Origin: a virus
Lineage: Duplodnaviria > Heunggongvirae > Uroviricota > Caudoviricetes
Length of the DNA stretch: 64,000 nucleotides
IMG/VR virus record: IMGVR_UViG_2925939204_000001
Reading direction: 5' to 3' (one strand)
Made by a program: the position numbers and the translations under genes
The notes under the pieces: model-generated
What the model was told of the DNA's origin: nothing
The model's database searches: none
The model's input: the letters and a program-made list of their open reading frames with translations, nothing else
Part shown: positions 549-61,660 of the stretch, piece by piece
How positions within the stretch are numbered: position 1 is the first letter of the stretch
Layout of the letters: each line of letters starts with the position of its first letter

Positions 549-625
549 GATGGTGTAGCTCAGTAGGATAGAGCAGCAGCCTTCTAAGCTGTCGGTCGGT
601 GGTTCGAATCCACCCACCATCGCCA
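549..625 (+). tRNA. tRNA-Arg (anticodon TCT)
   Basis: Cloverleaf readable by eye: acceptor GATGGTG/CACCATC, D arm TAGCTCAGTAGGATAGAGCA, anticodon loop CTTCTAA, T loop TTCGAAT, encoded CCA. Confidence 0.8.
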
Positions 626-630
626 ATTTA

Positions 631-717
631 GGGGAGTTAGTCCGTAGGGGTAGCGGGGTAGACTGTAAATCTACTGTCATTGCGACTCGGGTGGTTCGAC
701 TCCATCACTCCCCACCA
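631..717 (+). tRNA. tRNA-Tyr (anticodon GTA), type II with long variable arm
   Basis: Acceptor GGGGAGT/ACTCCCC, anticodon stem-loop GTAGA-CTGTAAA-TCTAC, ~15-nt variable arm, T loop TTCGACT, encoded CCA. Confidence 0.75.
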
Positions 718-721
718 AATT

Positions 722-797
722 GCCGGTTTAGCTCAGTTGGTAGAGCAGTCGCTTTGTAAGCGAATGGTCAGCGGTTCGATCCCGTTAACCGGCACCA
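722..797 (+). tRNA. tRNA-Thr (anticodon TGT)
   Basis: Acceptor GCCGGTT/AACCGGC, D arm TAGCTCAGTTGGTAGAGCA, anticodon loop TTTGTAA, T loop TTCGATC, encoded CCA. Confidence 0.8.
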
Positions 798-1252
798 ACA
801 CAACAGGTAAGAGCATTTGTAGAGTTCGACTCTCTACCGTGGGCTTTTTCCCGCGATGCGAGCCATAAATGCTCTTACCGTTGTGATGAAGTGCAGCTCT
901 TTGAAGCAACCAGAAGATAAGCATCTGGCTTCACAACATAAACCGCAGGAACGACCAATAAACGGTAGTCCGTATGGAGAACACCCCGTTGAGGAAGAGG
1001 CCTGGCCGGAACCGTAACCGGCACTACAACGTTGAGAACACTGGCGTAACGGGGTCATATCCCAATCTACGAATAAATGTTGCGTTGCAGCGTGACAACC
1101 AGTGTTCTCAACATTGTGGTGAATGCGCAGGCTGATGCGCGAAAGACATTGCAGCTATTGCGGAAAAGAGCTGTTCGGCGGGGCAATTAAACGCCCGTGA
1201 GAGTCTGAAATAACCGCAAGCCGGAGATCAGCACCGGTCGCCACAATAACGG

Positions 1253-1339
1253 GAGAGTAGGGAGCATGGTGCTCAAGCGGTCTTGAAAACCGTCCCATTG
1301 CGCAAGCGATGATGGTTCGATTCCATTACTCTCCGCCAG
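1253..1339 (+). tRNA. tRNA-Ser (anticodon TGA), type II; atypical D arm
   Basis: Acceptor GGAGAGT/ACTCTCC, anticodon stem-loop GCGGT-CTTGAAA-ACCGT, long variable arm, T arm GATGG-TTCGATT-CCATT, discriminator G, CCA; D stem imperfect. Confidence 0.55.
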
Positions 1340-1498
1340 TGCAACGTTAAGAGTATTTGGCTAATTAAGCGAATGCCGGAAGCAGAACCGGATCACCAAA
1401 TGCGTACAGGCGTCATCGCCGCCCAGCCAGCCAAGTGCTCTTACCATTGCGGTGAATGCGGCTAAGCGCACGCGGAACAGTTAAAACAATCCTCCTTA

Positions 1499-1822
1499 GT
1501 GGTTAAGTCAAACATCCCGGCGTTAATTGTTAACTGGTTAACGTCACCTGGAGGCACCAGGCACCGCAATCTAATAAAGTTTCAAGCAATGGAGTTTTTG
1601 TTGTCAGACTTCAGATATAGATGGTTGTGGAAGGAGAGCCTGTGCATAGTGCAGTTATTTCTTCCGCTATTTGTCTGCTTTGTCATGCTTCCTGAGCTGA
1701 AATACGCAATTTCAGACACTTTAAGCACTATCGTTACTTTTGTGTTTTATCTTTACTTTGATTACTTATTGAGCACTAAAATCAATGAATTATCCGAGGA
1801 AATTCAAGGTGGCTGTAAGTGA
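1499..1822 (+). CDS. hypothetical hydrophobic protein (107 aa)
   Basis: Complete ORF between tRNA genes; hydrophobic stretches; no recognisable motif. Confidence 0.3.
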   Translation: MVKSNIPALIVNWLTSPGGTRHRNLIKFQAMEFLLSDFRYRWLWKESLCIVQLFLPLFVCFVMLPELKYAISDTLSTIVTFVFYLYFDYLLSTKINELSEEIQGGCK

Positions 1823-1950
1823 TGAATTTTTGGGCGTTTGCCGATAAGAACCCTGGTTGGACATTTTTATTTTTGCTGGTGGTTGCATATGGGGTCGAGC
1901 AAGCGGCAAAAGCCTTACGCGGTTCTGGCAAAAAGCGTAAGCGGAATTAA
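1822..1950 (+). CDS. small membrane peptide (42 aa, MNFWAFADKNPGWTFLFLLVVAYGV...)
   Basis: ATG overlaps the stop of the upstream ORF; one predicted TM helix followed by a basic tail; below the ORF-track size cutoff. Confidence 0.3.
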   Translation: MNFWAFADKNPGWTFLFLLVVAYGVEQAAKALRGSGKKRKRN

Positions 1951-1959
1951 CAGTAATCT

Positions 1960-2035
1960 GGCCCTTTAGCTCAGTGGTTAGAGCTGGCGACTCATAATCG
2001 CACGGTCACCGGTTCAAGTCCGGTAGGGGCCACCA
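1960..2035 (+). tRNA. tRNA-Met or tRNA-Ile2 (anticodon CAT)
   Basis: Acceptor GGCCCTT/AGGGGCC, D arm TAGCTCAGTGGTTAGAGCT, anticodon loop CTCATAA, T loop TTCAAGT, CCA; differs from host elongator tRNA-Met. Confidence 0.8.
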
Positions 2036-3564: not shown

Positions 3565-3957
3565 ATGGAACAAATCAGCAGCGCAGAAATTGCGGATATC
3601 ATGATCAGGGCTGACTGCTATCTGACAGTCACTGAAATTACCACTCTCGCCAAAGAAAAATACCCTCATCTCCATGTTTCACGAGTAAGTGTAACTAACA
3701 TCATTCGTCATTTTGTTCGTTCAAGCAGGGCAATCTGTGAGCTGGATGATCGTGTGTATCCACGAAAATACTGGCTACATGGTCTAAACGGATATCAGTT
3801 CAAGGTGCGCGGGCGCACGCCTGAATACGGTAGCTTACTGGTTAAAAACTGTAGCAGGAAATCAGTCGAACAGGCGCGAAAAGAGCAACGAGAGCTGGTG
3901 GACATGGCGAATAAGCTGTGGAATGCCGCCGTTAAAAAGCGTGGTGTTGCTTTATGA
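3565..3957 (+). CDS. putative HTH regulator immediately upstream of pacA (Lpa-like by position)
   Basis: 130-aa ORF with HTH-like segment LTVTEITTLAKEKY; position corresponds to the late-promoter activator gene of P1-type phages; preceded by an operator-like site. Confidence 0.4.
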   Translation: MEQISSAEIADIMIRADCYLTVTEITTLAKEKYPHLHVSRVSVTNIIRHFVRSSRAICELDDRVYPRKYWLHGLNGYQFKVRGRTPEYGSLLVKNCSRKSVEQARKEQRELVDMANKLWNAAVKKRGVAL

Positions 3958-5318
3958 GTCTGGTTAATTGGGAGGAGCACCGCGCCCGCTTTATAGCGTT
4001 GCGTGAAGAAAAAGGGATCACTGTAAAGGAATACTGTGAGGAGCATGGCCTTAGCTTCAATACAGCCAGAAAGCATCTCAATATGAAAAAAAATGAGGTG
4101 CGGTCGCAGGTAAAGACAACAAAAAAAAGCACCAAATCACCTGAAAAAAAACGGGCGGGAAGAGCAACAAAAAAGCTGGAAGAGGGTGCAGAAAAAACAA
4201 AATTTACAGAAATTGACAATTCGCAGGGCGCAGGTTCTTTCCGAAGTATGCCGAGAAAGAAAACTTCGGATCATGAAAATAATGCGAATAATAACAATGA
4301 GATAAAAGAATCTGTCAGGAGATCATTGCGCGAAAAAATGGCGAAAATGATCCCCGAAGAAGATAAAAGCGCCCCAAAAATTGAGGGATCTTCTGCAATG
4401 ATCCCCGACGGTGCTGTGCAGCGTGCCACATTGCCCACTACGAATGTGGCTCGCGATATGATGAAGAACGGCGCAGAAGAACACCTGCGGTTAGCAATTC
4501 AAATGGCGCAAGAGCGCGCACTTCAGTATCAAAGCATTGTTGATCAGGAGGCCGAACGTCTACAGGCGGAAATAGACGCCTTGGGCGATAAAGAGCCAGA
4601 AGGAATGCACCCTGGGCAGCGCCTTCTCGGTCTAATCAGTGGCGCGGCCTACTACATGAATGATTTTATCAGTAGGTTGGCAGCTATATATCAGTCCGAA
4701 CAAAAGCTGCGACAGGGGGATGAAAAGCTTCGTCAGAGCGCTCGCCAGCAAGCATTCAAAGAGGCTGAGGCCAGAGAAAAACTCGAATTAGCACGCCTAC
4801 AGGCCGAACAGCGTGGCAAAGAGATTGAATATCGCATTGGCGCTGACGCACGCGCAGCCAGAGTTATCGCCGCCGCTATACGTATGCGTGAGCGCGAGGA
4901 ACTGGATGATATCGGTGTTGCTGAATACATCGAGCGCCAGGGTGTCAGCGTCCCGGCTATCCTCGCGGCGCGCGCGGCGAAAGCTATCACTCTTCTCGAA
5001 CCACCTGTTTCTGACGTCAATGATGTTGATGATGAACAGCTGGACAAAGAGGCAAGGGAGTTTGCAACGCTTCAGGCTAACCATCCGCAATGGCTGGCAG
5101 AGCGCCGGGCGGATGTGGCAACCATTGTTGAAGAATTGGGGTGCGGAGATTACGACCGCAATGGCGAGCGTAAAGCTGGAGAATTCGAGGCCAACGACGA
5201 AGAGCTGGATATTGACCCTTCGGCAACGGCTGAAATTTACGGTGATTATGATGTATCTGATGCAGGGTATGACGCCGGAGATGATGATATCGCGATAGAA
5301 CCGCCGGAGGATGATTAA
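3954..5318 (+). CDS. pacA: terminase small subunit PacA-like
   Basis: 454-aa ORF, N-terminus MSLVNWEEHRARFIALREEKGITVKEYCEEHGL (HTH-like), coupled to the large subunit; GATC-rich cluster inside 5' part. Confidence 0.7.
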   Translation: MSLVNWEEHRARFIALREEKGITVKEYCEEHGLSFNTARKHLNMKKNEVRSQVKTTKKSTKSPEKKRAGRATKKLEEGAEKTKFTEIDNSQGAGSFRSMPRKKTSDHENNANNNNEIKESVRRSLREKMAKMIPEEDKSAPKIEGSSAMIPDGAVQRATLPTTNVARDMMKNGAEEHLRLAIQMAQERALQYQSIVDQEAERLQAEIDALGDKEPEGMHPGQRLLGLISGAAYYMNDFISRLAAIYQSEQKLRQGDEKLRQSARQQAFKEAEAREKLELARLQAEQRGKEIEYRIGADARAARVIAAAIRMREREELDDIGVAEYIERQGVSVPAILAARAAKAITLLEPPVSDVNDVDDEQLDKEAREFATLQANHPQWLAERRADVATIVEELGCGDYDRNGERKAGEFEANDEELDIDPSATAEIYGDYDVSDAGYDAGDDDIAIEPPEDD

Positions 5319-6826
5319 TGGCTGGCGGGCGCAAGATTAAATGCGTCACCAGCGATCCACGCTGGCGCGATATGGTAATCAAATACCGCTACAACTTTAC
5401 CCAGGCTGTTGTCGATATTTTTGGGATGTTCCCCTCCCACCAGCAGCAGCAGATCATTCAGTCAGTGCAGGAAACGGGGAGTAGGACTACCGTCACGTCC
5501 GGACACGGAACGGGGAAGTCGTCCCTTACCGCGATGTTGCTGTTGATTTTTATGATCCTGTTCCCCGATGCCCGTGTCATCATTGTTGCTAACAAGATAG
5601 GCCAGGTAAAAACAGGCGTATTCAAATACGTTAAACAGTATTGGGCGAATGCAGTTAAGCGTCATGGGTGGTTGCAGACCTATTTTGTCCTCTCTGACAC
5701 CATGTTTTATGAGCGCTCCCGTAAGGGGATTTGGGAAGTTCTCTGCAAAGGTTATCGACTCGGCAACGAAGAAGCGCTGGCGGGGGAACACGCGGCACAT
5801 TTGCTTCTAATTCTGGATGAAGCATCTGGTATATCTGATAAGGCGATCGGCGTAATGACCGGTGCTCTTACTGAAGAAGATAACCGGATGTTGATGCTAT
5901 CCCAGCCAACAAGGCCAAGTGGTTATTTCTACGATTCGCACCATTCTCGAGCAAAAACCCCAGACAACCCGAAAGGGATCTGGACAGCAATTGTTCTTAA
6001 CTCGGAAGAATCACCGTTCGTCACACCACAATTCATCAAGCAGAAGCTTCTGGAATATGGCGGGCGCGATTCTATTGAGTACATGGTCAAGGTGCTTGGT
6101 CAGTTCCCACGAGAAATTAACGGCTATTTGCTTGGTCGTGATGAATGCGATCGCGCTGCTCGCCGCAAGGTGTTGTTGGAGAAAAACTGGGGATGGGTGG
6201 CAACGGCTGACGTTGGTAATGGGCGAGATAAGTCGGTCCTCAACATCTGCAAGGTATCTGGTCACAGGGATAAGCGGCGCGTTGTTAACTTTAAGGTAAT
6301 GGAGATGCCTGGCACTATGGACCCATTGGCCTTTGCTGACTTCATATATAACGAATGTACGCCGGAAAAATACCCGAATATAACAATCGCGGTTGATGCT
6401 GATGGTTTTGGTTCTGATACGTGTGCGCAGTTGGTGCGTCGTGGTGCGAACCCGGTACGTATTCGGTGGGGAAAACCCATGTTTGCGAACAAAGACAGGG
6501 AGCGATTTGTTAATCAGCGTGCCTACGCAAATATTATGGCGCGTGATGCCATAAAGTCAGGGCGTATGCGGATAGACAGTGACCCTAAAACGGCAGAGCA
6601 AGCGTCAAAAATCCCCTTTTTACTGAATGAAGAGGGGAAAATGGCGATGATGCGCAAAGAGCACATGCGGCAAAAGCTAAACATCAAATCGCCTGACCGA
6701 TGGGATACCTACTGCTTCACTATGCTGGTGGACTATGTGCCTGCTAATGAAGATATTGGTGCCGAAATGGCAACTTTCCGAGATCAGGTTCTGGCGGATA
6801 TCGAAATGCCGGCTCTGGATATATAA
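5318..6826 (+). CDS. pacB: terminase large subunit PacB-like (ATPase/nuclease)
   Basis: Walker A SGHGTGKS and Walker B LLLILDEAS motifs; 502 aa; overlaps pacA stop. Confidence 0.85.
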   Translation: MAGGRKIKCVTSDPRWRDMVIKYRYNFTQAVVDIFGMFPSHQQQQIIQSVQETGSRTTVTSGHGTGKSSLTAMLLLIFMILFPDARVIIVANKIGQVKTGVFKYVKQYWANAVKRHGWLQTYFVLSDTMFYERSRKGIWEVLCKGYRLGNEEALAGEHAAHLLLILDEASGISDKAIGVMTGALTEEDNRMLMLSQPTRPSGYFYDSHHSRAKTPDNPKGIWTAIVLNSEESPFVTPQFIKQKLLEYGGRDSIEYMVKVLGQFPREINGYLLGRDECDRAARRKVLLEKNWGWVATADVGNGRDKSVLNICKVSGHRDKRRVVNFKVMEMPGTMDPLAFADFIYNECTPEKYPNITIAVDADGFGSDTCAQLVRRGANPVRIRWGKPMFANKDRERFVNQRAYANIMARDAIKSGRMRIDSDPKTAEQASKIPFLLNEEGKMAMMRKEHMRQKLNIKSPDRWDTYCFTMLVDYVPANEDIGAEMATFRDQVLADIEMPALDI

Positions 6827-6853: not shown

Positions 6854-7891
6854 TTACCAGAGCTTCGCGGCGTACTGCGTTTGGGGGAATGTGTATCCGT
6901 AACGTTCTTCGATTGCTTTGCCGTATTTTTTACGAGCTTCATTCAGTTTAATGCCGGTCAGGTCGTCTCCAGAGGCCATCATTACGTCTAACAATTCCAG
7001 ATCCATTTTATCCAGCCTTGCCATTGCTTCACGTGATGTACGTATCTTACGCTCAATGATATGGCGAATAGCCGGATCGGCATCCTCCAGCATCTTAGCG
7101 GATTTCTGCTTAAGGCTTTCATTGCGAATATCGATGTTCCTTAAGATGTACGACTTCGCAACATAGCTTGGCTGGTGTTTTTCCAGGTCACGAACACGAT
7201 ATAAGTTAAAATCGCCGAGAAGGCTGCAAGGTACCGATTCGACGCCAGAATAAATTGTAATGCTCCGGCGTTCACCAACATTATTGACAACGGGGATCGT
7301 TGTCTTCGGTAGTCTTGCGAAAACCAATGCACCATGTGCGCCAACTCTAAAGCGAGAAAGGGCATTGCTGCCTTCGATGTTTGTTGTCAGCACAACATCT
7401 GTATATGCCTCTTTACGCGCCCGGTAGATCTCGCCTTCAGGCTCAGCTTCAAAGAAGCGCTGTTCTTCTTCAAGAGCACCTACGATTTGAGAAAAAACCC
7501 TATTTTTCAGGCTTTTCTTTATGATTTTGTCGTATTTTTTGAGCAATTGTTCACGTGTAAATGTACGTGTTGTTGTAGCGCTTTGCACAACAACATGCGT
7601 GCTTTGATTGGTGTCCTCAATGATGAATGGGATCGGAGAATATACAGACTCAACAATGTTCGACGCTTTGCCGTCGGCATCGCGACACATGTCAACGAAG
7701 GCTTTCCATTCAGCAAGACATTTTTCAGCTTCTTCTAATATGTTTTGGTCATGCGTTAATGCAACATGGCGGAATTCCTCGCCAGCATAACTGGTATCAT
7801 GGAAAACAGAGTTTGCGACCACCAGCTCTTTCCACCGTTCAGCGGTTTGCAGGAACCGTTTGTACTCTTTCTCGATCGACTTCTTACTCAT
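6854..7891 (-). CDS. hypothetical 345-aa protein in the position occupied by the c1 repressor gene in P1
   Basis: Complete ORF convergent with pacB, divergent from rox-dre; operator-like motif just upstream of its start; sequence itself not recognised. Confidence 0.5.
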   Translation of the reverse strand: MSKKSIEKEYKRFLQTAERWKELVVANSVFHDTSYAGEEFRHVALTHDQNILEEAEKCLAEWKAFVDMCRDADGKASNIVESVYSPIPFIIEDTNQSTHVVVQSATTTRTFTREQLLKKYDKIIKKSLKNRVFSQIVGALEEEQRFFEAEPEGEIYRARKEAYTDVVLTTNIEGSNALSRFRVGAHGALVFARLPKTTIPVVNNVGERRSITIYSGVESVPCSLLGDFNLYRVRDLEKHQPSYVAKSYILRNIDIRNESLKQKSAKMLEDADPAIRHIIERKIRTSREAMARLDKMDLELLDVMMASGDDLTGIKLNEARKKYGKAIEERYGYTFPQTQYAAKLW

Positions 7892-7906
7892 TATTCCTAC
7901 TCGATT

Positions 7907-7920
7907 TAGTTTTCTAACAT
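7907..7920. promoter_or_regulatory. operator-like site TAGTTTTCTAACAT
   Basis: Copy of the recurring motif, 16 bp upstream of the 6854..7891 start codon. Confidence 0.4.
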
Positions 7921-8101
7921 AAAATTACTATGACAAATTTATGTCGAATAACAGAGTGAGTAAAGGATAGAACTGTGATTTTTTGTCATCAATTTTAGAA
8001 AACCAACTGTATAAACCACACTTCGCAAATTAAAGACCATGAAGGCAACGTGTTACTGGTCAGAATCAATCTGTGATGGATTAAAAAAAATCGCCATTTT
8101 A

Positions 8102-8133
8102 TAACTTTAAATAATTGGCATTATTTAAAGTTA
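8102..8133. other. rox site-specific recombination target (Dre target)
   Basis: 14-bp inverted repeats TAACTTTAAATAAT / ATTATTTAAAGTTA around a 4-bp spacer TGGC; matches the published rox sequence in reverse orientation. Confidence 0.85.
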
Positions 8134-8285
8134 GGCTATAATCATGGGTGGATGATCAGTGTTGACATCACTGAAAATACGTGCCTCGAATCAAAGGTTT
8201 GAATCTTGAAAATTAACTTATAGCTACCCTGTCATTTTTATATTTTTCGCGTAGCGTCATCTGTATATAGAGGTTAAATAGTTTC

Positions 8286-9314
8286 ATGAGTGAATTAATT
8301 ATCTCTGGCAGCTCCAGTGGTTTTCTGCGCAACATTGGCAAAGAGTACCAGGAGGCCGCAGAAAACTTTATGCGGTTCATGAATGACCAGGGGGCTTATG
8401 CGCCGAATACTCTGCGCGACCTCCGGTTGGTGTTTCATTCCTGGGCGCGCTGGTGTCACGCTCGCCAGCTTGCCTGGTTTCCGATCTCACCAGAAATGGC
8501 CCGCGAGTATTTTCTTCAGTTGCATGATGCCGATCTGGCTTCGACCACCATTGATAAGCACTATGCCATGCTTAACATGCTGCTTTCGCAATGTGGCCTC
8601 CCGCCGCTGTCGGACGATAAAAGTGTGTCTCTGGCCATGCGGCGCATCCGGCGCGAAGCGGCAACTGAAAAAGGCGAACGAACAGGCCAGGCTATACCGC
8701 TGCGGTGGGACGATCTGAAACTGCTCGACGTCCTGTTGTCCAGGTCAGAACGGCTGGTGGACCTGCGCAACCGGGCTTTTCTCTTTGTTGCATACAATAC
8801 CCTGTTGCGTATGGCTGAAATGTCCCGCGTGCGTGTTCGCGATCTGGAACAGACTGGTGACACTGTCACGCTACATATTTCACACACGAAGACAATAACG
8901 ACCGCCGCCGGGCTTGATAAGGTGCTTTCCCGTCGCACTACCGCTGTGCTGAATGACTGGCTGGATGTTTCCGGGCTTCGCGAACATCCTGACGCAGTGC
9001 TGTTCCCGCCGATACACCGTAGCAATAAGGCCAGGATCACGACAACGCCCCTTACTGCACCTGCAATGGAGAAAATATTCAGCGACGCCTGGGTGTTGCT
9101 GAATAAAAGAGATGCTACGCCAAACAAAGGAAGATACCGGACGTGGACCGGGCATAGTGCACGCGTCGGGGCCGCTATTGATATGGCTGAAAAGCAGGTG
9201 TCTATGGTGGAGATCATGCAGGAAGGAACCTGGAAGAAACCGGAAACACTTATGCGGTATCTTCGCCGTGGCGGCGTGTCTGTGGGGGCTAATAGCCGCC
9301 TGATGGATTCGTAA
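8286..9314 (+). CDS. dre: Dre tyrosine site-specific recombinase (Cre homologue)
   Basis: 342 aa, N-terminus MSELIISGSS...; Cre-family catalytic region with GHSARVGAA; adjacent rox site. Confidence 0.9.
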   Translation: MSELIISGSSSGFLRNIGKEYQEAAENFMRFMNDQGAYAPNTLRDLRLVFHSWARWCHARQLAWFPISPEMAREYFLQLHDADLASTTIDKHYAMLNMLLSQCGLPPLSDDKSVSLAMRRIRREAATEKGERTGQAIPLRWDDLKLLDVLLSRSERLVDLRNRAFLFVAYNTLLRMAEMSRVRVRDLEQTGDTVTLHISHTKTITTAAGLDKVLSRRTTAVLNDWLDVSGLREHPDAVLFPPIHRSNKARITTTPLTAPAMEKIFSDAWVLLNKRDATPNKGRYRTWTGHSARVGAAIDMAEKQVSMVEIMQEGTWKKPETLMRYLRRGGVSVGANSRLMDS

Positions 9315-10710: not shown

Positions 10711-11388
10711 ATGAATAACATGGCAACGAAAGAGCTTTTTAAGTTCCTTCCCAAATACAAAGCTCACAAAAACGTTAGTGCATCGAAAATCAAAAATGTT
10801 GTTATTTTCGGAGTAACTGATGCCCCACTTTGGGGCTGCATCGAACTCGTTGAACCAAAAGGGGCAACAGTTTGTGTTGACGCAATGTTTTTACAAAAAC
10901 ACCGACCAAAAACTGGCGGATATCTGATCGTTTATGAAAACGGTTATCTGTTCTATGCCCCGGAGAAACCATTTGAGGAACGCTATGGCCTGGTTAACGA
11001 CGCCTCCAAAAATGGAACCACGGTCATCATTACGGATGACAACGGCGTGATGATTAATCTTACCGGGAGCGTAACTATTTCTGCTGGTGGCATCACCACC
11101 CAGCAAGAAGAAATCGACCTTGAAGCAGCCGACTTTTCTGACGCGCTGATGTGGCTGAAGGATGGCAAGAAAGTTGCTCGACGCGGGTGGAACGGCGAAA
11201 ACCAATTCTGCTGGCTGGTTCCTGAAGGACAGTACCCGGCACGAATGGAAGCCATTAAGGGATATTTCCCCGGCGACCTCGTTCCGTATGGTGCTTATTT
11301 CGCCTTAAAAAATGCACAAGGTGTAGTTGTTCAGTGGGTTCCTTCTGTAGGCGACTTACTGGCATGTGACTGGTTTGTAGTGGAGTGA
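10711..11388 (+). CDS. DUF2829-like phage protein
   Basis: C-terminal segment ALMWLKDGKKVARRGWNG...CDWFVVE resembles the DUF2829 fold as I recall it. Confidence 0.45.
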   Translation: MNNMATKELFKFLPKYKAHKNVSASKIKNVVIFGVTDAPLWGCIELVEPKGATVCVDAMFLQKHRPKTGGYLIVYENGYLFYAPEKPFEERYGLVNDASKNGTTVIITDDNGVMINLTGSVTISAGGITTQQEEIDLEAADFSDALMWLKDGKKVARRGWNGENQFCWLVPEGQYPARMEAIKGYFPGDLVPYGAYFALKNAQGVVVQWVPSVGDLLACDWFVVE

Positions 11389-12249: not shown

Positions 12250-12280
12250 GAAGCCCGCCTGGTTGAGCGGGCTTCTTTTC
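12250..12280. terminator. bidirectional terminator hairpin between 11395..12195 and doc
   Basis: GAAGCCCGC-CTGGTTGA-GCGGGCTTC stem-loop followed by TTTTC. Confidence 0.55.
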
Positions 12281-12659
12281 AAATATTGGAACCAAATAAT
12301 TCACGTAGTTTTTCCGCTACTGAAGATACGGGGATTTCACCAGTTGCGGCCCCCACCGCAAGTTCCACCAGCACGGGAGAATCATATACCTGTATGCCGT
12401 TACGGCGTAGAAATAGCAGCGCACTGTTTAGCGCGGTACGCTTATTGGCATCATTGAATATATGCCCTCTCGCCGTAGCTACCAGGTAGGTGGCGGAGAC
12501 TTCGAAAAGGTCGGTGATCTCTTCGTAGGCAACTCTGGCCTGAACTCTCCCGATAATGGCCTCTGCCCTACCCGGATCAGACATTCCCGGCAGGCCGCCG
12601 TAGCGGTTTATATTCGCATCATGAAGCGCAATAAGTTCTTCTGGTGATATATGCCTCAT
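12279..12659 (-). CDS. doc: Doc toxin (Fic-fold kinase of the phd-doc addiction module)
   Basis: 126 aa; [17 protein letters not shown]...[13 protein letters not shown] matches P1 Doc as I recall it. Confidence 0.9.
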
Positions 12660-12880
12660 TATCGGTTAACCAGTTCCTTGTTGGTGGAGTCCAGGGTGTC
12701 AAACAGGGATGCAAATTCAGCATCCAGCGCCGCTTTTTTGTAGGCTTCAAAAGTAGCCTTGCTGACAATTACTGCTGGCTCTCGGCCTCTGCGGGTGATT
12801 TCAACCTCTTCCCCGGCTTCAACATTGTTGAGCACTTCAGAAAGGTTGCCGCGCGCGGTACGGAAGTTAATGGATTGCAT
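12659..12880 (-). CDS. phd: Phd antitoxin
   Basis: [39 protein letters not shown]; start overlaps doc; real start taken at the internal Met. Confidence 0.9.
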
Positions 12881-12952
12881 AAACACCTCATGTACTCGTT
12901 ATGTGTACACAACTATAAACTTCACAGGTATAAAGCACCAGCACTTTGCAGC

Positions 12953-13342
12953 TTAAATCACCGGACAATCATCAAATTCCCCACTTCGGGCATCATTGAT
13001 GGCATGAGTGATCACACCAAAAACAGCATTACTGCCCGTGTATCCATCGTCATCTACTGGTAACGCCTCTTTCTTCCCGGTGCTTAAGTCCTCCAGGTGC
13101 TGGCGCGGATACTTCCTGTATCTCTTTATGCGATATTCACCCTCCATAGCGCACACAAGCAGAGAACCATCAACCGGAGTAAGCGAGGAATCAACCACCA
13201 GCAAAGCACCCTGCAATATTCCCTCACGGTGATGGCTGTCTGCCGCCCGCATGAAGTAGGTCGCTGATGGATGCCTGATTAGTTGCTGATCAAGAGAAAT
13301 TCGGCTTTCAACATAATCCGCCGCAGGAGAAGGGAAGCCCAT
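12953..13342 (-). CDS. humD: HumD, UmuD'-like translesion synthesis accessory protein
   Basis: GFPSPAADYVE.RI.L.Q.LI.HPSATYF matches the UmuD core; lacks the UmuD N-terminal extension. Confidence 0.88.
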   Translation of the reverse strand: MGFPSPAADYVESRISLDQQLIRHPSATYFMRAADSHHREGILQGALLVVDSSLTPVDGSLLVCAMEGEYRIKRYRKYPRQHLEDLSTGKKEALPVDDDGYTGSNAVFGVITHAINDARSGEFDDCPVI

Positions 13343-13362
13343 AGCGTTTTACCTCAATGATA

Positions 13363-13378
13363 CTGTTTATTCATACAG
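13363..13378. promoter_or_regulatory. LexA box (SOS operator) upstream of humD
   Basis: CTGT-ttattcat-ACAG matches CTGT-N8-ACAG; 21 nt upstream of the humD start codon. Confidence 0.6.
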
Positions 13379-13379
13379 T

Positions 13380-15300
13380 GTGCGCCGGGAGACCGGTAGA
13401 GATCAAGGGGTGAAAGTCCCCGACCATTGAAGGACCAGCAATCCACAAGGTCCCCGAGTCATGCGTTGCATACCGCGAGGTATGGGGCGAAGCGTTGACA
13501 GGGGTGTTGACAGGCCAGCCATTGAGCCACGAAATGTATATTAAATTACCGGGTGCCGACGTTGTACTGTTAACGGAAGGCAACATCATAGGGTGCGATA
13601 CTGCGAGTGCCACATGGACCCGGCGGGGTCTGAGACCCTGGCATGTCAATACGATCTCTACGCGGGAACCGGGAGATCTCCCCTCTGACCATCTGCCAGT
13701 GTCGGAGATGGCCCGCACCGGGAAGACGAGGAGTCATAGCCGGTGATGTACGGAGAGGAGAAGTCGGACTCGCTCATAGTAGCGGCGAAGCAGGCGAACA
13801 ACCCGAAAGGAGCGGAGTCAGTGGAGCGAAGGAGCGGGGCCAAGGGGAACGCGGAACAGCCACACATGCGCCGGACACAGAGCCGGGAAAGCATGTCACA
13901 GAGGCTGTCACGCGTGCGGGAAGCTGCGAAGCAGCAGAAGAAAGAACGGTTTACAGCATTGTTCCACCTGCTGACAGTCGAAGCACTGGAAGCCGCATTC
14001 CTCTCCCTGAGCAGGAAAGCGGCCGCGGGAGTGGATGGCATCAGGTGGATGGACTACGCCGGAAACATGAAGAACAACATAACAGATCTGCACCGGAGGC
14101 TACATCAGGGCAGCTACAGGGCGCAGCCCGGCAGGCGTCACTACATCCCAAAAGCGGATGGAAAACAACGCCCGCTCGGCATCGCCTCGCTGGAGGACAA
14201 GATCGTCCAGTATGCGCTGGTGAAAATCCTGAACGCAGTCTATGAAAACGACTTTATGGGGTTCTCATACGGGTTCAGACCCGGGCGAAACCAGCACGAT
14301 GCACTGGACGCACTGGCCACAGGGCTGGTACGCACTAACGTAAACTGGGTACTGGATGCCGACATCAGTCAGTTCTTCGACAGGGTGAGCCACGAATGGC
14401 TGATCAGGTTCACAGAGCATCGGATCGGCGACCGGAGGGTAATCAGGCTCATACGTAAGTGGCTCACAGCCGGGACGTCGGAGGAGGGTCAATGGCGAGC
14501 AACGGAGGAAGGCACCCCACAGGGTGCGGTCATCTCACCGCTGCTGGCAAACATATACCTCCACTACGTCTTCGATCTGTGGGCGCATCAGTGGCGACGT
14601 CGCTATGCCACAGGCAATGTGGTAATGGTCAGATACGCCGATGACATCGTCATCGGGTTCGACAAACGATACGATGCCCGGCGCTTCCGTATAGCCATGC
14701 AGCGCAGACTGAGGGAGTTCGGACTCACGGTTCACCCGGAGAAAACCCGTCTGATGGAGTTCGGCCGCTTCGCTGCCGAAAACCGTGCCATCAGGGGAAA
14801 AGGCAAACCAGAAACGTTCAACTTCCTCGGGTTCACGCACATCAGCGGGAAAGATCGCAACGGCAGGTTCATGCTGATACGAAAGACCCGCCGGGATCGG
14901 ATGACGGCAACTCTGAAAGCCATCAAAGACGGTCTGCGAAGGCGCTGGCATTACTCAATCCCCGAACAGGGAAAATGGCTCAGGAGAGTGGTTCAGGGAT
15001 ACCTGAACTATCACTCGGTACCGGGCAACTTCCCCACCATGCAGAAGTTCAGGACACACGTAACAAACCTCTGGCGCCGGGCGCTCAGGCGCAGGAGCCA
15101 GAAGGATGATACGACCTGGACGAAAGCAAACAAACTGGCAGCCGCATGGCTACCAAGGGTTCGGGTTCTTCATCCATGGCCTGTGGAGCGGTTCACCGCC
15201 AGACACCCGAGGCAGGAGCCCGGTGCGTAAATCGCGCACGCCGGGATCTGTGCGGGGGGTATCCGGTAACGGGTATCCCTACCGCGACATACATTGAAAA
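13380..15300 (+). mobile_element. group II intron (bacterial, ORF in domain IV); 3' boundary approximate
   Basis: 5' end GTGCGCC; internal RT/maturase ORF; 34-nt domain V-like hairpin with GUAA tetraloop and 2-nt bulge at 15252-15285 after the ORF. Confidence 0.7.
13743..15230 (+). CDS. group II intron-encoded reverse transcriptase/maturase
   Basis: RT motifs including GTPQGAVISPLLANIYL and YADD; C-terminal maturase region; no Cys-rich HNH endonuclease domain visible. Confidence 0.9.
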   Translation: MMYGEEKSDSLIVAAKQANNPKGAESVERRSGAKGNAEQPHMRRTQSRESMSQRLSRVREAAKQQKKERFTALFHLLTVEALEAAFLSLSRKAAAGVDGIRWMDYAGNMKNNITDLHRRLHQGSYRAQPGRRHYIPKADGKQRPLGIASLEDKIVQYALVKILNAVYENDFMGFSYGFRPGRNQHDALDALATGLVRTNVNWVLDADISQFFDRVSHEWLIRFTEHRIGDRRVIRLIRKWLTAGTSEEGQWRATEEGTPQGAVISPLLANIYLHYVFDLWAHQWRRRYATGNVVMVRYADDIVIGFDKRYDARRFRIAMQRRLREFGLTVHPEKTRLMEFGRFAAENRAIRGKGKPETFNFLGFTHISGKDRNGRFMLIRKTRRDRMTATLKAIKDGLRRRWHYSIPEQGKWLRRVVQGYLNYHSVPGNFPTMQKFRTHVTNLWRRALRRRSQKDDTTWTKANKLAAAWLPRVRVLHPWPVERFTARHPRQEPGA

Positions 15301-15374
15301 GGCATAGTTTGTGAAAGCGGGGTTTGTAGGCGCGCCACGCTGGGGGCTAATCACATTTCTCCCCCATCTTGCCG

Positions 15375-15647
15375 TTATTTTTTTGGTGCATCCTCGTTCT
15401 GATACACCGGATCGCTCCCTTTTGGCAACTGGAGGCTTAACTGCCGATAGTGCCGTAACCGTTCCATGAAATAGGTGCGCAGATTCTCTGGTTGCTCGCG
15501 GGCTACCTGTTCAGCTATGACAGGTATGTTCAATCGCTCTTTGTACGCCACACCGCTGGCAGCCAGATCAACGTTAACCTTATCCCGTTCTTCCTGACTT
15601 TTAGCTGCAATATTCCAATCGTGCATATCAAATCCCATCCAGAACAA
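15375..15647 (-). CDS. hot: Hot, homologue of DNA polymerase III theta subunit (HolE)
   Basis: [33 protein letters not shown] aligns with the HolE core. Confidence 0.8.
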
Positions 15648-16075
15648 TTGCGTAACGACTATTATTTAACCAGCAAAGTAACTTTTAATTTTTTTTCTTT
15701 TCCCATTGATTTTTGTGCACAGCTTATCTGCCTTGCCGTGCGCAGAATCAACTTTTTTCTTCCTGATTTATCCACAAAGTTATGCACTTGCAAGAGGGCC
15801 ATTTTCTAAATATTGTGATGTTTCACAAATGAAATGAATTTTGATTAATGAAGATAAGGAGAAAATTTGAGATGCAATCATGACGTTAATAGATAGGGTC
15901 TGCATTACAGACCCCATCCGCATCAAGGAATTAGCCGTTCCCTGATGTTGTTCCGAAAACATGTGCCGTAAGCTCACGTTAACGACTTTCTTTCACCGAA
16001 TCCAACTATATAGGGGTTGGGTTTCTACGTCAACGTGAGCAAGTGCTCCTTTACATTTGACAAGGAACCACCTTA

Positions 16076-16213
16076 ATGACTGCTTTTTTTCAGTTCCTGA
16101 GTGCATTTTTAGATGCGCCTGTTATTAGCCAGATTCTGGCGATCATCCTCATCATCGTTTTGATTTTGCTTTTAAGGTCAGTAAAAAATGGAATTATGCA
16201 CTGGCTTACTTAA
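16076..16213 (+). CDS. small hydrophobic peptide (45 aa, MTAFFQFLSAFLDAPVISQILAIILIIVLILLL...)
   Basis: Short ORF in the gap between hot and the pmg operon; one TM helix; weak RBS; below the ORF-track cutoff. Confidence 0.25.
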   Translation: MTAFFQFLSAFLDAPVISQILAIILIIVLILLLRSVKNGIMHWLT

Positions 16214-16287
16214 TGTTCAGTGAAACATTAAAATCTCCTTGATGTGGAAACAATCATTTTCTGTATGTGCTGGTGGGTACCTGTAGT

Positions 16288-16650
16288 TCAGCTTTCGTTG
16301 GCATTTAACTTCGTCTTTGCTTTCTCCACCAGCAACTTCCAGATGCCTATTTCATTAGCAGCCGCCTTGATGGCGGCATAAAAAGCATCTTGCTGATCGT
16401 AACGCTGAATCTGTTTTTTCAGTTTTGCCTCCACCAATTTAATTTCATTACGTGCTTTCTGAAGCCGCAGCGCCGCCCGGTTACGTCTGTTCTTGTATAG
16501 CGCGTTAATCTCTGATAATTGCTTTAATTTACCAGCCTGACTGCGGATTATCGCCTCTCTGACTTCTGCCGTGCGTCTCATCTGATCTCTTAAGAGTTCA
16601 CCGTTTTCGATAATTCTTTCAAGGTGTTTGATGTGATCTGCAACTCTCAT
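16288..16650 (-). CDS. hypothetical coiled-coil protein (120 aa)
   Basis: Last gene of the leftward operon; start overlaps upstream stop. Confidence 0.5.
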   Translation of the reverse strand: MRVADHIKHLERIIENGELLRDQMRRTAEVREAIIRSQAGKLKQLSEINALYKNRRNRAALRLQKARNEIKLVEAKLKKQIQRYDQQDAFYAAIKAAANEIGIWKLLVEKAKTKLNANES

Positions 16651-17579
16651 ACTTCACCCTCGCTTGTATCGCCAGCATCCACCAGCGGCAATAAAGCCCT
16701 GGCCATCTTATGAACCAATAGTGCATCAATAATGCCAAGCGTATGCCCCGGCTTAATGTTTAATGCCGCCTCAAGGTGACACCTTTCCAGGCCACTTTTC
16801 TCGGCTTGTTTATGATGATCTGGTGTAATAACGTCGCCCAAAACACGGCTAATTCTTTCTCGTAATTGCTGGGTGCCAGCACACTTGATCGCTGTATCGT
16901 GGAGACGGTTAACCAGTTCGCGATAAACATGCGGCTTAATTCGGATACGTTCACCGGTGACGCCCTTTCCTGGTGCTGGCACCGAACTATCCGGAATATC
17001 CGGATAGTTGCCAGCCTCGTAAGCTACCCGCAGCCAGTGCATGAATGTTTCAGTGGACACACAACCACAGTCCACATCGATTTTCCCGCGTTGCTGTTCC
17101 AGCCATTGCCCAAAATCCAACCTGTAAGTCTTACTTTCAAGTTCATCACCATTGAACTCGACTTTCTGCGACGCTATGAGAGCTGATTCGTATTGTTCGC
17201 GAGTGACAACTGACTGGTATTCATCGCTATCAAGGTCACCAATTGGAAGCTCAATCTCACAACAAAAATTGCGCCCAAAGAAAGTGTCTTTTTTGTGGTC
17301 TGAGCCAAAAGCAAAAGTCGCGCATGGTGCCATTAAATTGACACTGGGTAGGTAACAATAACTCATTCCATCAGGCCACCCGCCGCACTTAGGCAGTTCC
17401 TTCACTAACAAGTCGATAAACTTCATTTTTTTATCATCTTTGCAAGCCGCCAAAGCCATTTGGGCAAGTGCCAATACTTCATCTGCCGTATATCCAGCAC
17501 CGTGACCATACATTTCGATACGGGAAATAATCTCTGATATGCGCTCTTCAGTGATTCTGGTCATTTCTTTTTGCGCCAT
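16647..17579 (-). CDS. hypothetical protein (310 aa); segment PHVYRELVNRLHD...QQLRERISRVLG resembles the C-terminus of 28390..29001
   Basis: Complete ORF, translationally coupled; internal paralogous segment. Confidence 0.55.
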   Translation of the reverse strand: MAQKEMTRITEERISEIISRIEMYGHGAGYTADEVLALAQMALAACKDDKKMKFIDLLVKELPKCGGWPDGMSYCYLPSVNLMAPCATFAFGSDHKKDTFFGRNFCCEIELPIGDLDSDEYQSVVTREQYESALIASQKVEFNGDELESKTYRLDFGQWLEQQRGKIDVDCGCVSTETFMHWLRVAYEAGNYPDIPDSSVPAPGKGVTGERIRIKPHVYRELVNRLHDTAIKCAGTQQLRERISRVLGDVITPDHHKQAEKSGLERCHLEAALNIKPGHTLGIIDALLVHKMARALLPLVDAGDTSEGEV

Positions 17580-17935
17580 TTCTTTTCACATTCCTTAGTC
17601 CATTCTTCAATGTTCATTTTGGCAATATCAGTCATTCCATCACCTAAGAAATACTTTTTCCGGTATGTCTTGCACTTAAACCACACTACAACAGCCACCA
17701 GCCAGAAAATAAAAGGCCATACAGCAATACCAACGACAGCCGCGATAAAGCCCAATAGCCATAAATGAAGCTCTCCAACTTCTGTTTCCGGCAATATTCT
17801 TAAAGAATTAAACAGCAGGATGAACGAATGGTCGTATGCATTGGCAGTATAAGACATGCAATCCATATAATTAAAGTCATAGCCTGCGGCTGCCGCCCAT
17901 AATGGGCGGTCAAGAAAATGTTTTAGTGTCATCAT
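17561..17935 (-). CDS. small membrane protein (124 aa)
   Basis: Two hydrophobic helices (LWLLGFIAAVVGIAVWPFIFWLVAVVVWF). Confidence 0.5.
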   Translation of the reverse strand: MMTLKHFLDRPLWAAAAGYDFNYMDCMSYTANAYDHSFILLFNSLRILPETEVGELHLWLLGFIAAVVGIAVWPFIFWLVAVVVWFKCKTYRKKYFLGDGMTDIAKMNIEEWTKECEKKWRKKK

Positions 17936-17941
17936 ATAAAT

Positions 17942-18331
17942 TTAAGGTTCAGACCAGTTATCTTCAATAGCAATGCTTAATCTTTGTAGCCATTCTGCTA
18001 ATTTCAGCATTGCTTCTCTTTCGCTTAAACCACGAGGAAAATCATCAAGCGAAATTGTTGGCTTGAAGCCCCCGTAATTATCCATTTCAACAGTCAGATT
18101 TTGCTCCAGCACGGTATTCCTTACGCGGCTATTGTGCCGAAGCAAATATACTGAACGTGATTTATTGGTTTTATGGTCAAACTGATATTCGGTAAGTATC
18201 ATCTGGCTTTTGCCATGACTATTACCTCTCCACATACTTACCTCACTTAATAAAACAACTCCATGCGTAGTTGATGATTTTTTCCCACGTAATATAAATC
18301 TGCACTCCGGCAGTAAAACCAAAGCCAACAA
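17942..18331 (-). CDS. hypothetical protein (129 aa)
   Basis: Complete ORF in operon. Confidence 0.5.
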   Translation of the reverse strand: MLALVLLPECRFILRGKKSSTTHGVVLLSEVSMWRGNSHGKSQMILTEYQFDHKTNKSRSVYLLRHNSRVRNTVLEQNLTVEMDNYGGFKPTISLDDFPRGLSEREAMLKLAEWLQRLSIAIEDNWSEP

Positions 18332-18413
18332 TTGCTGAAAAAATCAAAACATTTACTTTTGACATTATAAATTTTCTCTCGGCGTCGTAGGTGATAGCAC
18401 CATAATTGATAAT

Positions 18414-18647
18414 TTAGTGAGTTAGCAGCTCCATTTTTTGGATGATTTCCGCATGAGCATCATCGTTATCAACACTTAACTCGTTTAATGCCTCTCGCAC
18501 TACATCAACTTCTTCTGGTTGGAAGAAGTCATCTCGGTAGTCACCAAATAGAACCGAAACAAGCCTGCCACCAGCAACATCAAGATTGGCGCTAACAGGT
18601 GGCTCTTTGCCATCCTCAAATTCGACTACAAAAGTTAATTTTCCCAT
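18414..18647 (-). CDS. hypothetical acidic protein (77 aa)
   Basis: Complete ORF in operon. Confidence 0.45.
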   Translation of the reverse strand: MGKLTFVVEFEDGKEPPVSANLDVAGGRLVSVLFGDYRDDFFQPEEVDVVREALNELSVDNDDAHAEIIQKMELLTH

Positions 18648-18723
18648 CGTTACCCCCAGAAGATAAAAATAGCGGCAATCGCCATAGCTACGCCTACAAT
18701 CGCAAATGCTTCAGGCCAGCTTA

Positions 18724-20368: not shown

Positions 20369-20369
20369 A

Positions 20370-21137: not shown

Positions 21138-21138
21138 A

Positions 21139-22860: not shown

Positions 22861-22905
22861 TCATCTTGCGTTGCCTGGTCCGCCGCCTCGCGCAGTTCTT
22901 GATAG

Positions 22906-23502: not shown

Positions 23503-23506
23503 TCCA

Positions 23507-60221: not shown

Positions 60222-60299
60222 ATAGCTTTAATTATGTGTGCTGGAGGGTTGCTCATTTCCCGTCAGCACCCACGACCTCAACGATAGCGGGTAGGGAAG

Positions 60300-60606
60300 G
60301 TAGCGCAATGTTGAGGGCATTTTTTACATCATCAATCCATCAGCAATGAAGGCATTCTTTACATATTTCAATAATATCAATCAGTTAACACAGTGAATGA
60401 TAATAAAAAAGCGCAATAAGAATGCACGATACGCACGATATTGGTTGAGGGCGATTTTTACATAATCCTTACATATCAATATGTTATATAAAAACACAAC
60501 TTGCTAATAACGAGATACATGCAATTAAGATGTAAAAATTGCCCTCAATTGCCGATCGTTAAGGGCAAATTCTACACCTTGAGAGGGGTGTAAAAATTGC
60601 CCTTAA
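60300..60606. repeat. incA-like iteron array downstream of repA
   Basis: About six 19-bp units related to TTGAGGGCAAATCTTACACC in both orientations. Confidence 0.55.
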
Positions 60607-61391
60607 GACTGCTGATAGGTAAATTTTATCCTGGTAACTTTGCCGCCTTCCGTCACCTCTGAGAAGACTATTTTCATTTTTGTATTTTTTTCAATCTCTG
60701 CTACAGCCTTCGTTAAAAAACTTCTCTTAAATTCGGCATACCGCTGATAGCTTTTTGGTAACCCATAACGCTCCCGCATCCATTCGACGCCAAGTATGGC
60801 AAAGCCGCTTCCATCATCCTTCCTGTACTGGCATAAGGACTCATAAAGCCGCATAGAATAAGGATTTGTAAGGCGAGATACTTCGGTAAAATTCAGCCTT
60901 GTGAATCTCTTATCAAGCAGAGTAAAAAACGGCATGAGATATGGATTAAGATGAATAATGTAAGTCCCGCGCCGTGGTGAATAGGCATCCTTAATCATCC
61001 AGGGATAAGACTCATAACTGTCTTCTGATTCGGTCGATTCATCAGGGTTATATATCGTAACTTTCTTCTCGCTAAGACCTGAAATGGCCTTACGAATATC
61101 CTTGCTGGCTTCAGCAGAGGGCAAATTATACATCTCTGCATATTCGTTGACCGTCAACTCACAGGCACCTGAACCAAGAACGCCATCCTTAGAAGCATAG
61201 CGAAGTCTTCCCACCACAATAAACAACAGTCGCTTTTGGTCGCGAGTCAGGTGATAAGCAGCCTCCGTGATCTCATTGGCTTGTGCCAGACTACGACTAA
61301 TAGGTGTCGCTGACTCAATCAGGCTGACGGCTTTTGCTGTTAATTCCGCTCTGTTCATAACCCTGTGTGATCCTTCAAATGGTGAGGGCAA
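60603..61391 (-). CDS. repA: iteron-binding plasmid replication initiator RepA
   Basis: ORF bracketed by iteron arrays on both sides as in the P1 R replicon; probable real start at internal Met (MNRAELTA...) since the first iteron overlaps the upstream codons. Confidence 0.7.
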   Translation of the reverse strand: MPSPFEGSHRVMNRAELTAKAVSLIESATPISRSLAQANEITEAAYHLTRDQKRLLFIVVGRLRYASKDGVLGSGACELTVNEYAEMYNLPSAEASKDIRKAISGLSEKKVTIYNPDESTESEDSYESYPWMIKDAYSPRRGTYIIHLNPYLMPFFTLLDKRFTRLNFTEVSRLTNPYSMRLYESLCQYRKDDGSGFAILGVEWMRERYGLPKSYQRYAEFKRSFLTKAVAEIEKNTKMKIVFSEVTEGGKVTRIKFTYQQS

Positions 61392-61500
61392 TTTTTACAC
61401 CACTTTGAGGGCAATTACTACACCTTTTGAGGGCAAATCTTACACCTTCTGAGGGCAAATCTTACACCGATCGTATTTAATTGAGGGCAAATCTTACACC
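61383..61500. repeat. incC-like iterons (5 direct copies of TGAGGGCAA(A/T)TNTTACACC)
   Basis: Five ~19-bp direct repeats at roughly 22-23 bp spacing immediately upstream of repA. Confidence 0.65.
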
Positions 61501-61660
61501 AGCCTCCTCTACAGCCCGCGCCACTACTGGCCCCAGCGACGCCTAAAAAGGATCTAAAAAGGATTAAAAATGGAAAAAGGTTTATAAAAATACTCTGTGG
61601 ATATGTGAGTAGCGTCACTTAAGGTGTAAAAATCACCCTCAATAATCGCTTCTCGACCGG
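61500..61660. other. putative plasmid origin region (oriR-like)
   Basis: AT-rich segment with GATC sites, DnaA-box-like TGTGGATAT and one inverted iteron, adjacent to incC-like iterons. Confidence 0.4.

Follow-up and report, generated by a model that had tools for sequence, protein, structure and literature searches.

The presence of a short palindromic site beside a Cre-family recombinase gene raises the question of which of two related systems a P1-family phage-plasmid carries, the Cre/loxP system of phage P1 or the Dre/rox system of phage D6, and of what the answer implies for the annotation of the rest of the element. Dre is a heterospecific homologue of Cre that works without accessory proteins, and the Dre/rox system, characterised since 2004, is a standard tool of genome engineering. 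The locus considered here belongs to a virus of the Caudoviricetes (IMG/VR record IMGVR_UViG_2925939204_000001), of which a stretch of 64,000 nucleotides was analysed; this whole stretch is referred to below as the window. A first-pass annotation, made from the sequence, had called the site rox, the adjacent gene dre and the element as a whole D6-like. Having followed up each of these calls, we consider it very likely that the locus is the Dre/rox module of a D6-type (P1g2) phage-plasmid, situated between c1 and the early genes (Table 1). The identification of Dre and rox proper is confirmed, and it brings nothing new about Dre/rox itself.

Table 1. Features of the Dre/rox locus and of the wider window, in window coordinates
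Feature	Position	Strand	Basis and remarks
lpa, late activator	3565-3957	+	ORF; collinear with D6 at 98%
pacA, terminase	3954-5318	+	ORF; collinear with D6 at 98%
pacB, terminase	5318-6826	+	ORF; collinear with D6 at 98%
c1, prophage repressor of D6 type, 345 aa	6854..7891	-	99.5% DNA identity to D6 c1, which its record annotates as C1; divergent from dre
rox recombination site	8102..8133	no strand	Left arm 8102-8115 (14 bp), asymmetric spacer TGGC 8116-8119, right arm 8120-8133 (14 bp)
Sigma-70 promoter-like site facing dre	8115..8142	+	-35 TTGGCA 8115-8120, 16-nt gap, -10 TATAAT 8137-8142; 11/12 consensus
Conserved untranslated block directly upstream of the dre start	8220..8273	+	Contains CTACCCTGTCATTTTT, TTTTTCGCGTAGCG and TATATAGAG
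dre, Cre-family tyrosine recombinase, natural Dre allele, 342 aa	8286..9314	+	Identity to D6 Dre, Pfam, catalytic residues, dN/dS
Group II intron	13413 to ~15290		No D6 counterpart
Accessory block, ~8 kb	15.3-23.5 kb		Missing in D6
Small ParA-like ATPase	46658-47329	-	ParA/CbiA/MipZ families; locus equivalent to D6 orf58-60
StbB	47587-47931	-	PF10784 (3e-11); locus equivalent to D6 orf58-60
ParM/StbA	47938-48918	-	PF06406 (2e-69); locus equivalent to D6 orf58-60
Plasmid replicon, RepA and iterons GAGGGCAAATnnTACACC	60299..61503	-	Five tandem iterons 61384-61503, more copies 60299-60607
Rep_3 RepA	60603-61391	-	PF01051 (3e-29), PF21205 (1e-15); equivalent to D6 orf42

The site itself is composed of two 14-nt arms that form an inverted repeat of perfect complementarity with 4 nt between them, TAACTTTAAATAAT TGGC ATTATTTAAAGTTA (the whole 32 nt being TAACTTTAAATAATTGGCATTATTTAAAGTTA). 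It is identical at 32 of 32 positions to nucleotides 4909-4940 of the D6 record AY753669.1, which are annotated there as a misc_recomb feature, "region of crossover (rox) site for Dre recombinase." It likewise agrees, natural flanking A and G included, with the published rox sequence "(A)TAACTTTAAATAAT TGGC ATTATTTAAAGTTA(G)" (PMC3082901), and the architecture of rox has been described as 14-4-14, that is, 14-bp arms and a 4-bp spacer (PMC4777119). The often-cited rox with a GCCA spacer is the opposite strand of the TGGC form. At up to three mismatches the window contains a single copy of rox, where 100 shuffles give an expectation of zero. A search for loxP-like sites at the same tolerance was empty across the window, bearing out what had earlier been judged by eye, and a single lox-arm-like 13-mer in the window is at chance level. 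As such, the reading of the site as an exact rox, not loxP, stands. When genomes chosen one per species were searched for the rox arms, the only match was in a Clostridia MAG. This match is an AT-rich perfect palindrome with no Dre homologue nearby, and because a palindrome needs only 14 independent matching bases it was rejected as a chance occurrence.

The protein points in the same direction. The window holds only one Cre-family gene, and its product aligns without gaps to D6 Dre at 334 of 342 residues (97.7%), compared with 41.1-41.6% identity to Cre of P1, P7, SJ46, RCS47 and their relatives (41.3% for P1 Cre). The pairwise alignment thus clearly favours Dre over Cre, and the assignment of the 342-aa ORF to Dre is upheld at about 98% against 41%. 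Pfam recognises the phage-integrase catalytic domain (PF00589) and the N-terminal SAM-like domain (PF02899). The best relatives in the PDB are all Cre, with E-values of about 1e-69, and the PDB copy searched held no structure of Dre. Aligned with Cre and Dre, the protein retains all six catalytic residues unchanged: R175, K202, H290, R293, W316 and Y325, the equivalents of Cre R173, K201, H289, R292, W315 and Y324. Moreover, Cre positions 43, 259 and 263 are reported to discriminate rox from loxP, the residues in Dre being R, P and K (PMC7438526), and the window protein is of the Dre type at all three (R44, corresponding to Cre position 43, P259 and K263). One might still suppose that the element has Cre/loxP as in P1, or a Cre-like recombinase specific for lox sites, and that the likeness to rox is superficial; the protein is after all a homologue of Cre, and the order lpa-pacA-pacB-c1-site-recombinase is common to P1. 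An exact rox, no loxP within three mismatches, Dre-type discriminating residues and 98% identity to Dre as opposed to 41% to Cre leave this supposition with almost no probability.

Comparison with the named systems places the module accordingly, within Dre/rox on all the sequence characters compared. It shares with the Dre/rox system of phage D6 (AY753669.1, MF356679.1) the 32-bp site and its flanks, the recombinase length of 342 aa, the distance of 152 bp from rox to the ATG, the gene order and the backbone, and differs from it by eight amino acid changes, a hyper-divergent 55-bp patch in dre (8801-8855), an additional group II intron and an accessory block. With the Cre/loxP system of P1 (NC_005856) it has in common the enzyme family, the catalytic hexad and a position beside c1 and the pac genes, and by analogy the roles in dimer resolution and cyclisation are presumably the same. 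In contrast, P1 loxP has a 13-8-13 layout where rox has 14-bp arms and an asymmetric 4-bp center, and P1 has an arrangement of cre promoters and the Oc1e operator in place of which the window has a promoter-like site inside rox. Close to it, too, are the P1g2 phage-plasmids of E. coli and Salmonella (for example NZ_CP066033 and pYU39_89; PMC10879196, PMC6799933), which measure about 86-97 kb, carry c1-rox-dre at 95-97.4% DNA identity and share Rep_3 with iterons, ParM/StbB, and phd-doc and higBA-type addiction modules. Two sister lineages, represented by pSa44-CIP-CRO (MH430881) and IMG/VR 3300009011_000012, have identical 14-bp arms and, 3 bp past them, the same -10 element. Identity of their recombinases is about 91% and 71%, and the spacers are TAGT or TAGC, where the window keeps TGGC.

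Since Dre and rox are so widely used in the laboratory, an engineered cassette or vector contamination of an assembly could in principle account for an exact rox beside a dre gene. The DNA argues otherwise. The window gene is 95.3% identical to D6 dre rather than 100% (4.7% divergence), and its product is a natural allele that differs from the canonical laboratory Dre by eight substitutions: G11S, H102Q, M174L, S177A, I179M, I182V, G185R and D188E. The natural flanks, the promoter region and c1 are all present, the 56 kb of phage DNA in which the module sits are D6-like and collinear with D6, and no vector backbone, selection marker or codon-optimised dre was seen beside the site. The locus is also found elsewhere in public data. 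Of the plasmids in PLSDB, 193 carry the c1-rox-dre region, as do 154 of 5,426 complete E. coli genomes, and the carriers are almost always plasmids of 86-97 kb. Among the PLSDB and RefSeq complete E. coli records the identity in this region reaches at most 97.4%, whereas 7,029 bp of the window are matched at 100% identity in two draft assemblies, GCA_013011205.1 and SRR13619167 (a Logan contig). Several independent NCBI assemblies contain the window allele of dre on contigs of plasmid size, together with an identical rox in the corresponding place. This is a natural sequence, one that public assemblies already contain, and an artificial origin can be given hardly any weight. Indeed, the exact window protein is present on at least 1000 public contigs, the named ones coming from E. 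coli and Salmonella Derby, compared with nine for canonical Dre; the form that predominates in nature appears to be the window allele and not the laboratory Dre.

The eight substitutions are not evenly spread. The two dre genes differ at 48 nucleotides, corresponding to 37 synonymous and 8 non-synonymous codons, and the resulting dN/dS of 0.061 implies that dre is under purifying selection. Divergence is clustered, however, with about 15-16 of the nucleotide differences in one patch of about 55-57 bp (8801-8855), and six of the eight amino acid changes fall in codons 174-188 (within a 19-codon patch, 172-190), next to the catalytic R175. This patch resembles a short tract introduced by gene conversion from a donor outside the lineages sampled; none was found among those that are 92% and 71% identical. 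None of the eight substitutions affects the three residues that discriminate rox from loxP. The changes within the patch are conservative (M/L, S/A, I/M, I/V, D/E, G/R), and three of them shift toward the residue found in Cre. Position 177 of Dre is the counterpart of Cre A175, which packs beneath the specificity helix J (PMC7438526); owing to this packing, a quantitative difference in activity from laboratory Dre is possible, and the putatively gene-converted patch so close to the active site might alter activity. A stronger version of this argument would hold that the window Dre has drifted to altered or lost activity through the substitutions at 174-188 and that site and gene are a relic. 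The clustering of six of the eight changes beside R175, and the match of position 177 to a residue that packs on the specificity helix, would fit such a history, yet the changes are conservative, three of them in the direction of Cre, the reading frame is unbroken and the ratio dN/dS is as low as 0.06. Nor does a decaying gene behave like an allele present on at least 1000 contigs, against nine for canonical Dre, with an intact rox always alongside. We consider a relic very improbable; judged from its sequence, the window dre is an intact allele with all catalytic and rox-discriminating residues in place.

Whether the module can speak for the rest of the window depends on the backbone. When the D6 genome is reverse-complemented, the window follows it along one collinear path, from D6 position 8398 to 1 and then from 91159 to 43202, over about 56 kb; the D6 record is linearised exactly at rox. 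The alignment to D6 covers 49,693 of the 64,000 bases (78%) at a mean identity of 96.5%, compared with 8,910 bases (14%) at 85% for P1, where no alignment crosses rox or dre. For ORFs with homologues in both phages, D6 gives a median amino acid identity of 98.8% and P1 one of 44%; the ORFs with P1 homologues number 30. At the protein level, the set of virion, lysis and immunity genes is P1-like, and in the D6 record the collinear genes are annotated "similar to P1 gene …". The window also encodes two C4 antisense RNAs. Among P1-like phage-plasmids, D6 is the reference for subgroup P1g2 (PMC10879196), and D6-like plasmid prophages have been documented in Salmonella and E. coli (PMC6799933; PMC11165635). 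Comparison of the window with both genomes thus substantiates the earlier claim of a D6-type P1-family phage-plasmid, and on sequence grounds the backbone is assigned to that type (P1g2). The occurrence of the identical locus on contigs of 42-104 kb is consistent with a circular plasmid-prophage state.

Mosaicism is nevertheless real, and it invites the alternative that only immC, rox and dre derive from D6 while the rest is of P1 type (P1g1), in which case the site would not anchor the window. About 14 kb, or 22% of the total, has no alignment to D6; the group II intron and the accessory block are part of it. ORFs 12279-12659 and 12953-13342, which sit in a segment that matches the humD-phd-doc region of P1, resemble P1 slightly more than they do D6. 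Part of 15372-17022 and the dmt segment at 42260-43568 match P1 and have no D6 counterpart, and the interval 12289-25000 partly matches P1-like phages at 95-97%. These are small modules, and apart from them the notion of a P1 backbone finds no support: the collinearity with D6, the coverage and the median identities given above all run against it, and the structural, replication, partition and immunity genes all track D6. We regard a P1-type backbone as very unlikely. "D6-like" is, accordingly, a label for the backbone and no guarantee gene by gene.

The first-pass annotation had further cautioned that expectations based on P1 need not hold for this element, a caution borne out on several counts. 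The window differs from P1 sensu stricto (Punavirus P1, P1g1) in all four of the characters compared, namely loxP/Cre, C1 and its operators, the rep-par region and DNA similarity. The window C1 is 21% identical to that of P1, and the 17-bp operator consensus of P1 C1 (ATTGCTCTAATAAATTT) has no match in the window at up to three mismatches. A local Pfam search gave no hit to C1 or to either of the two ORFs that follow dre, while precomputed Pfam assignments place PF27008 at the c1 of the identical public locus. The contiguous repA-incA-parA-parB-parS region of P1 was not found in the window; repA, placed with its iterons among structural genes, lacks an adjacent P1-style parAB, and the partition locus, which combines ParM/StbB of type II with the ParA-like protein, occupies 46.7-48.9 kb, so that about 12 kb, with capsid and sheath genes, separate it from repA. 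Clustered TGATCA/G hexamers of the P1 pac type were not found in pacA. Upstream of c1, the genes lpa-pacA-pacB stand in an order common to D6 and P1, and the complete order lpa-pacA-pacB-c1(-)-rox-dre-orf2-orf3-dut is identical to that of D6. Unlike in P1, cra, coi and imcA/imcB are absent from between c1, rox and dre.

Also present in the window is a candidate operator motif of the D6-type C1, aaATTagTTTTCTAACA.

The mechanism that we would propose for the module follows that of its relatives. One Dre monomer would bind each 14-bp arm, a tetramer would bring two rox sites into synapsis, and Tyr325 would catalyze sequential strand exchange via a Holliday intermediate across the central TGGC. 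In the plasmid-prophage, such a reaction would convert dimers to monomers for stable inheritance; on infection, it could circularise the injected, terminally redundant DNA whenever rox falls within the redundancy. Both roles, dimer resolution and cyclisation, are inferred by analogy, and cyclisation is the weaker of the two because no P1-type pac cluster was found in pacA. The difference in DNA identity to D6 between c1 (99.5%) and dre (95.3%), together with left flanks that differ in some contigs, had prompted the idea that lineages were joined by recombination at rox. In the alignment of the lineages, about 100 bp between the region upstream of c1 and rox are hypervariable and there is no clean breakpoint at the site, and we make no such claim.

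The leader of dre offers a further, more speculative feature. A sigma-70 promoter-like site faces dre in such a way that its -35 hexamer, TTGGCA, is made up of the last base of the left arm of rox, the spacer and the first base of the right arm, and its -10 hexamer, TATAAT, starts 3 bp past rox. It is the sole sigma-70 match of at least 11/12 in the 64-kb window on either strand; shuffled sequence yields one 11/12 match about once per window, so that the case for this predicted promoter, which we infer from the sequence, is one of position and conservation and not of statistics. Conservation was assessed in an alignment of the leaders of five Dre lineages whose recombinases are 71-100% identical. 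Across all five, the rox arms are invariant while the spacer is TGGC, TAGC or TAGT. The distance to the -10 element is constant in four diverged lineages, the hexamer being TATAAT, or TATGAT in one, and the adjacent DNA diverges. A second conserved element, the untranslated block just ahead of the start codon, is kept even in the lineage with the 71% identical recombinase, where neighboring intergenic DNA again diverges.

Taken at face value, this arrangement would have dre transcribed from a promoter whose -35 element lies inside the recombination site. Dre bound at rox would then occlude the promoter and shut off its own gene, and it is plausible, given this overlap, that Dre is subject to negative autoregulation through the rox-embedded promoter. 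A comparable autoregulatory loop is known for resolvases of the Tn3 family; to our knowledge, none has been described for Cre/lox. Put together with the observations on the allele, this yields a composite reading in which the crossover site of D6-type elements doubles as a Dre-repressed promoter of its own recombinase, the window allele is the predominant one in nature, and the gene-converted patch may alter activity. We hold this composite tentatively and think it somewhat doubtful as a whole.

For the annotation of this and related elements, the consequence of a D6-type anchor is practical: loxP, P1 C1 operators, a P1 pac and a repA-parAB arrangement should not be expected, and D6 should be taken as the reference. 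The rox-embedded promoter, the dominant allele, the spacer variants and the candidate C1 operator are modest leads and not discoveries. To those who engineer recombinases they may be of minor value, in the form of an eight-residue difference between natural and laboratory Dre, of spacers that vary while the arms are constant, and of the promoter-like overlap. For the biology of the phage-plasmids themselves, if the promoter is indeed built into the crossover site, the natural spacer variants TGGC, TAGC and TAGT would alter recombination compatibility and promoter strength together.

Identity to D6 drops near the c1-rox-dre junction (window 6854-9314), falling from 99.5% in c1 (5 mismatches in 1038 positions) to 92.8% in the rox-dre spacer and 95.3% in dre, and the roughly 100 bp leading from the c1 upstream region to rox are hypervariable between lineages. 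Much of the divergence in the recombinase is concentrated in codons 172-190 (window 8801-8855), where 16 of 55 bp differ from D6, against about 3% elsewhere in the gene. Synonymous divergence from D6 in this patch exceeds one (dS >1), and six of the eight amino-acid changes that distinguish the window's Dre from that of D6 fall within it. The patch looks like a short gene-conversion tract, although a search of the Dre lineages at 92% and 71% identity turned up no donor.

The recombination site itself also varies in nature, with the 14-bp arms unchanged and the spacers differing. The canonical TGGC spacer is present in 21 of 23 IMG/VR contigs. The plasmid pSa44-CIP-CRO carries TAGT beside a frameshifted dre of about 91% identity, one IMG/VR contig has TAGC with a recombinase of 71% identity, and GGGG was found in one contig. 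A scan for the rox arms in one genome per species returned a single match, at 6381-6412 of an 8-kb locus (L011) from an uncultured Clostridia metagenome-assembled genome (OZ007016.1). This match sits inside a longer perfect AT-rich palindrome with TAAT at its centre and the locus has no Dre homologue, and it was judged to be a chance match. The c1-rox-dre region has matches at 158 places in complete E. coli genomes, 5 of them chromosomal and not plasmid-borne, and one contig in the cluster sharing the window's exact Dre protein is 822 kb long; these may represent integrated D6-like elements.

Features located in the window and rox variants at compared public loci.
Feature	Position	Strand	Match or evidence
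tRNA cluster: Arg(TCT), Tyr(GTA), Thr(TGT), Ser(TGA), Met/Ile2(CAT)	549-2035	+	
225-aa ORF, two genes past dut	10711-11388	+	PF11195 (Tad2-like)
group-II-D1D4-6	13413-13638	+	Rfam, 186.6 bits
RT/maturase ORF, 3' of the group-II-D1D4-6 match	13743-15230	+	TIGR04416, E 4.6e-112
C4 antisense RNA genes (n=2)	30522-30609; 51175-51260	+	
a1b1 target element	51054-51106		
isrK-like sRNA match	30399-30477		
TTTTCTAACA motif sites	3477, 7910, 7993, 9320, 24545-24574, 29176-29205, 29853, 41311-41340, 50969-50998, 52977		
rox variant, L010 (pSa44-CIP-CRO, MH430881.1)	1297-1328		
rox variant, L017 (public locus)	3706-3737		
rox variant, L024 (public locus)	12405-12436		

Several other segments set the window apart from D6. 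A group II intron lies within the D6-like backbone (window 13413-15290, plus strand), a position at which D6 has no counterpart whatsoever (alignment gap, window 13380-15288). Part of window 8118-33000 is matched at 99% or better by no fewer than 3,437 plasmid records, the majority from Klebsiella, and the intron may be the source of these matches. The dmt region (42127-44352) likewise diverges from D6, where the annotation gives dmt a resemblance to P1 dmt in the C-terminal half of the latter alone. Because the alignment to D6 is interrupted across 42260-43568 and P1 dmt matches at 92% across 42127-42973 and at 71% across 43254-44352, the window's dmt seems both fuller and more P1-like than that of D6. 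At the tRNA cluster, the D6 annotation lists only Ser, Thr and Asn, and window 692-1578 within this region has just 86% identity to D6. The Pfam assignment of the 225-aa ORF was precomputed on a 100%-identical public locus (L035), and about 235 bp at window 10773-11007 do not align to D6. Tad2-like proteins are an anti-Thoeris sponge family.

The two C4 antisense RNA genes indicate two immI-like icd/ant modules, and the D6 annotation likewise holds two icd/anti-repressor pairs. One C4 module is accompanied by an a1b1 target element; an isrK-like sRNA match precedes the other on its 5' side. With respect to repressor binding, the motif (aaATTag)TTTTCTAACA is over-represented in the window, with 15 sites where 5.4 would be expected (0 of 100 shuffles), and is frequently arranged as the palindrome TGTTAGAAAA-N10-TTTTCTAACA. 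Sites lie 5' of lpa, c1, ref, hrdC and c4 RNA, while others coincide with the ref stop codon or fall between ppp and pdcB, the last of these being only a rough counterpart of P1 Oppp. This placement parallels that of the P1 operators Olpa, Oc1, Oref, Omat, Odmt and Oc4, and the TTTTCTAACA motif is placed here as a candidate D6-type C1 operator, one that would stand in place of the missing P1 consensus.
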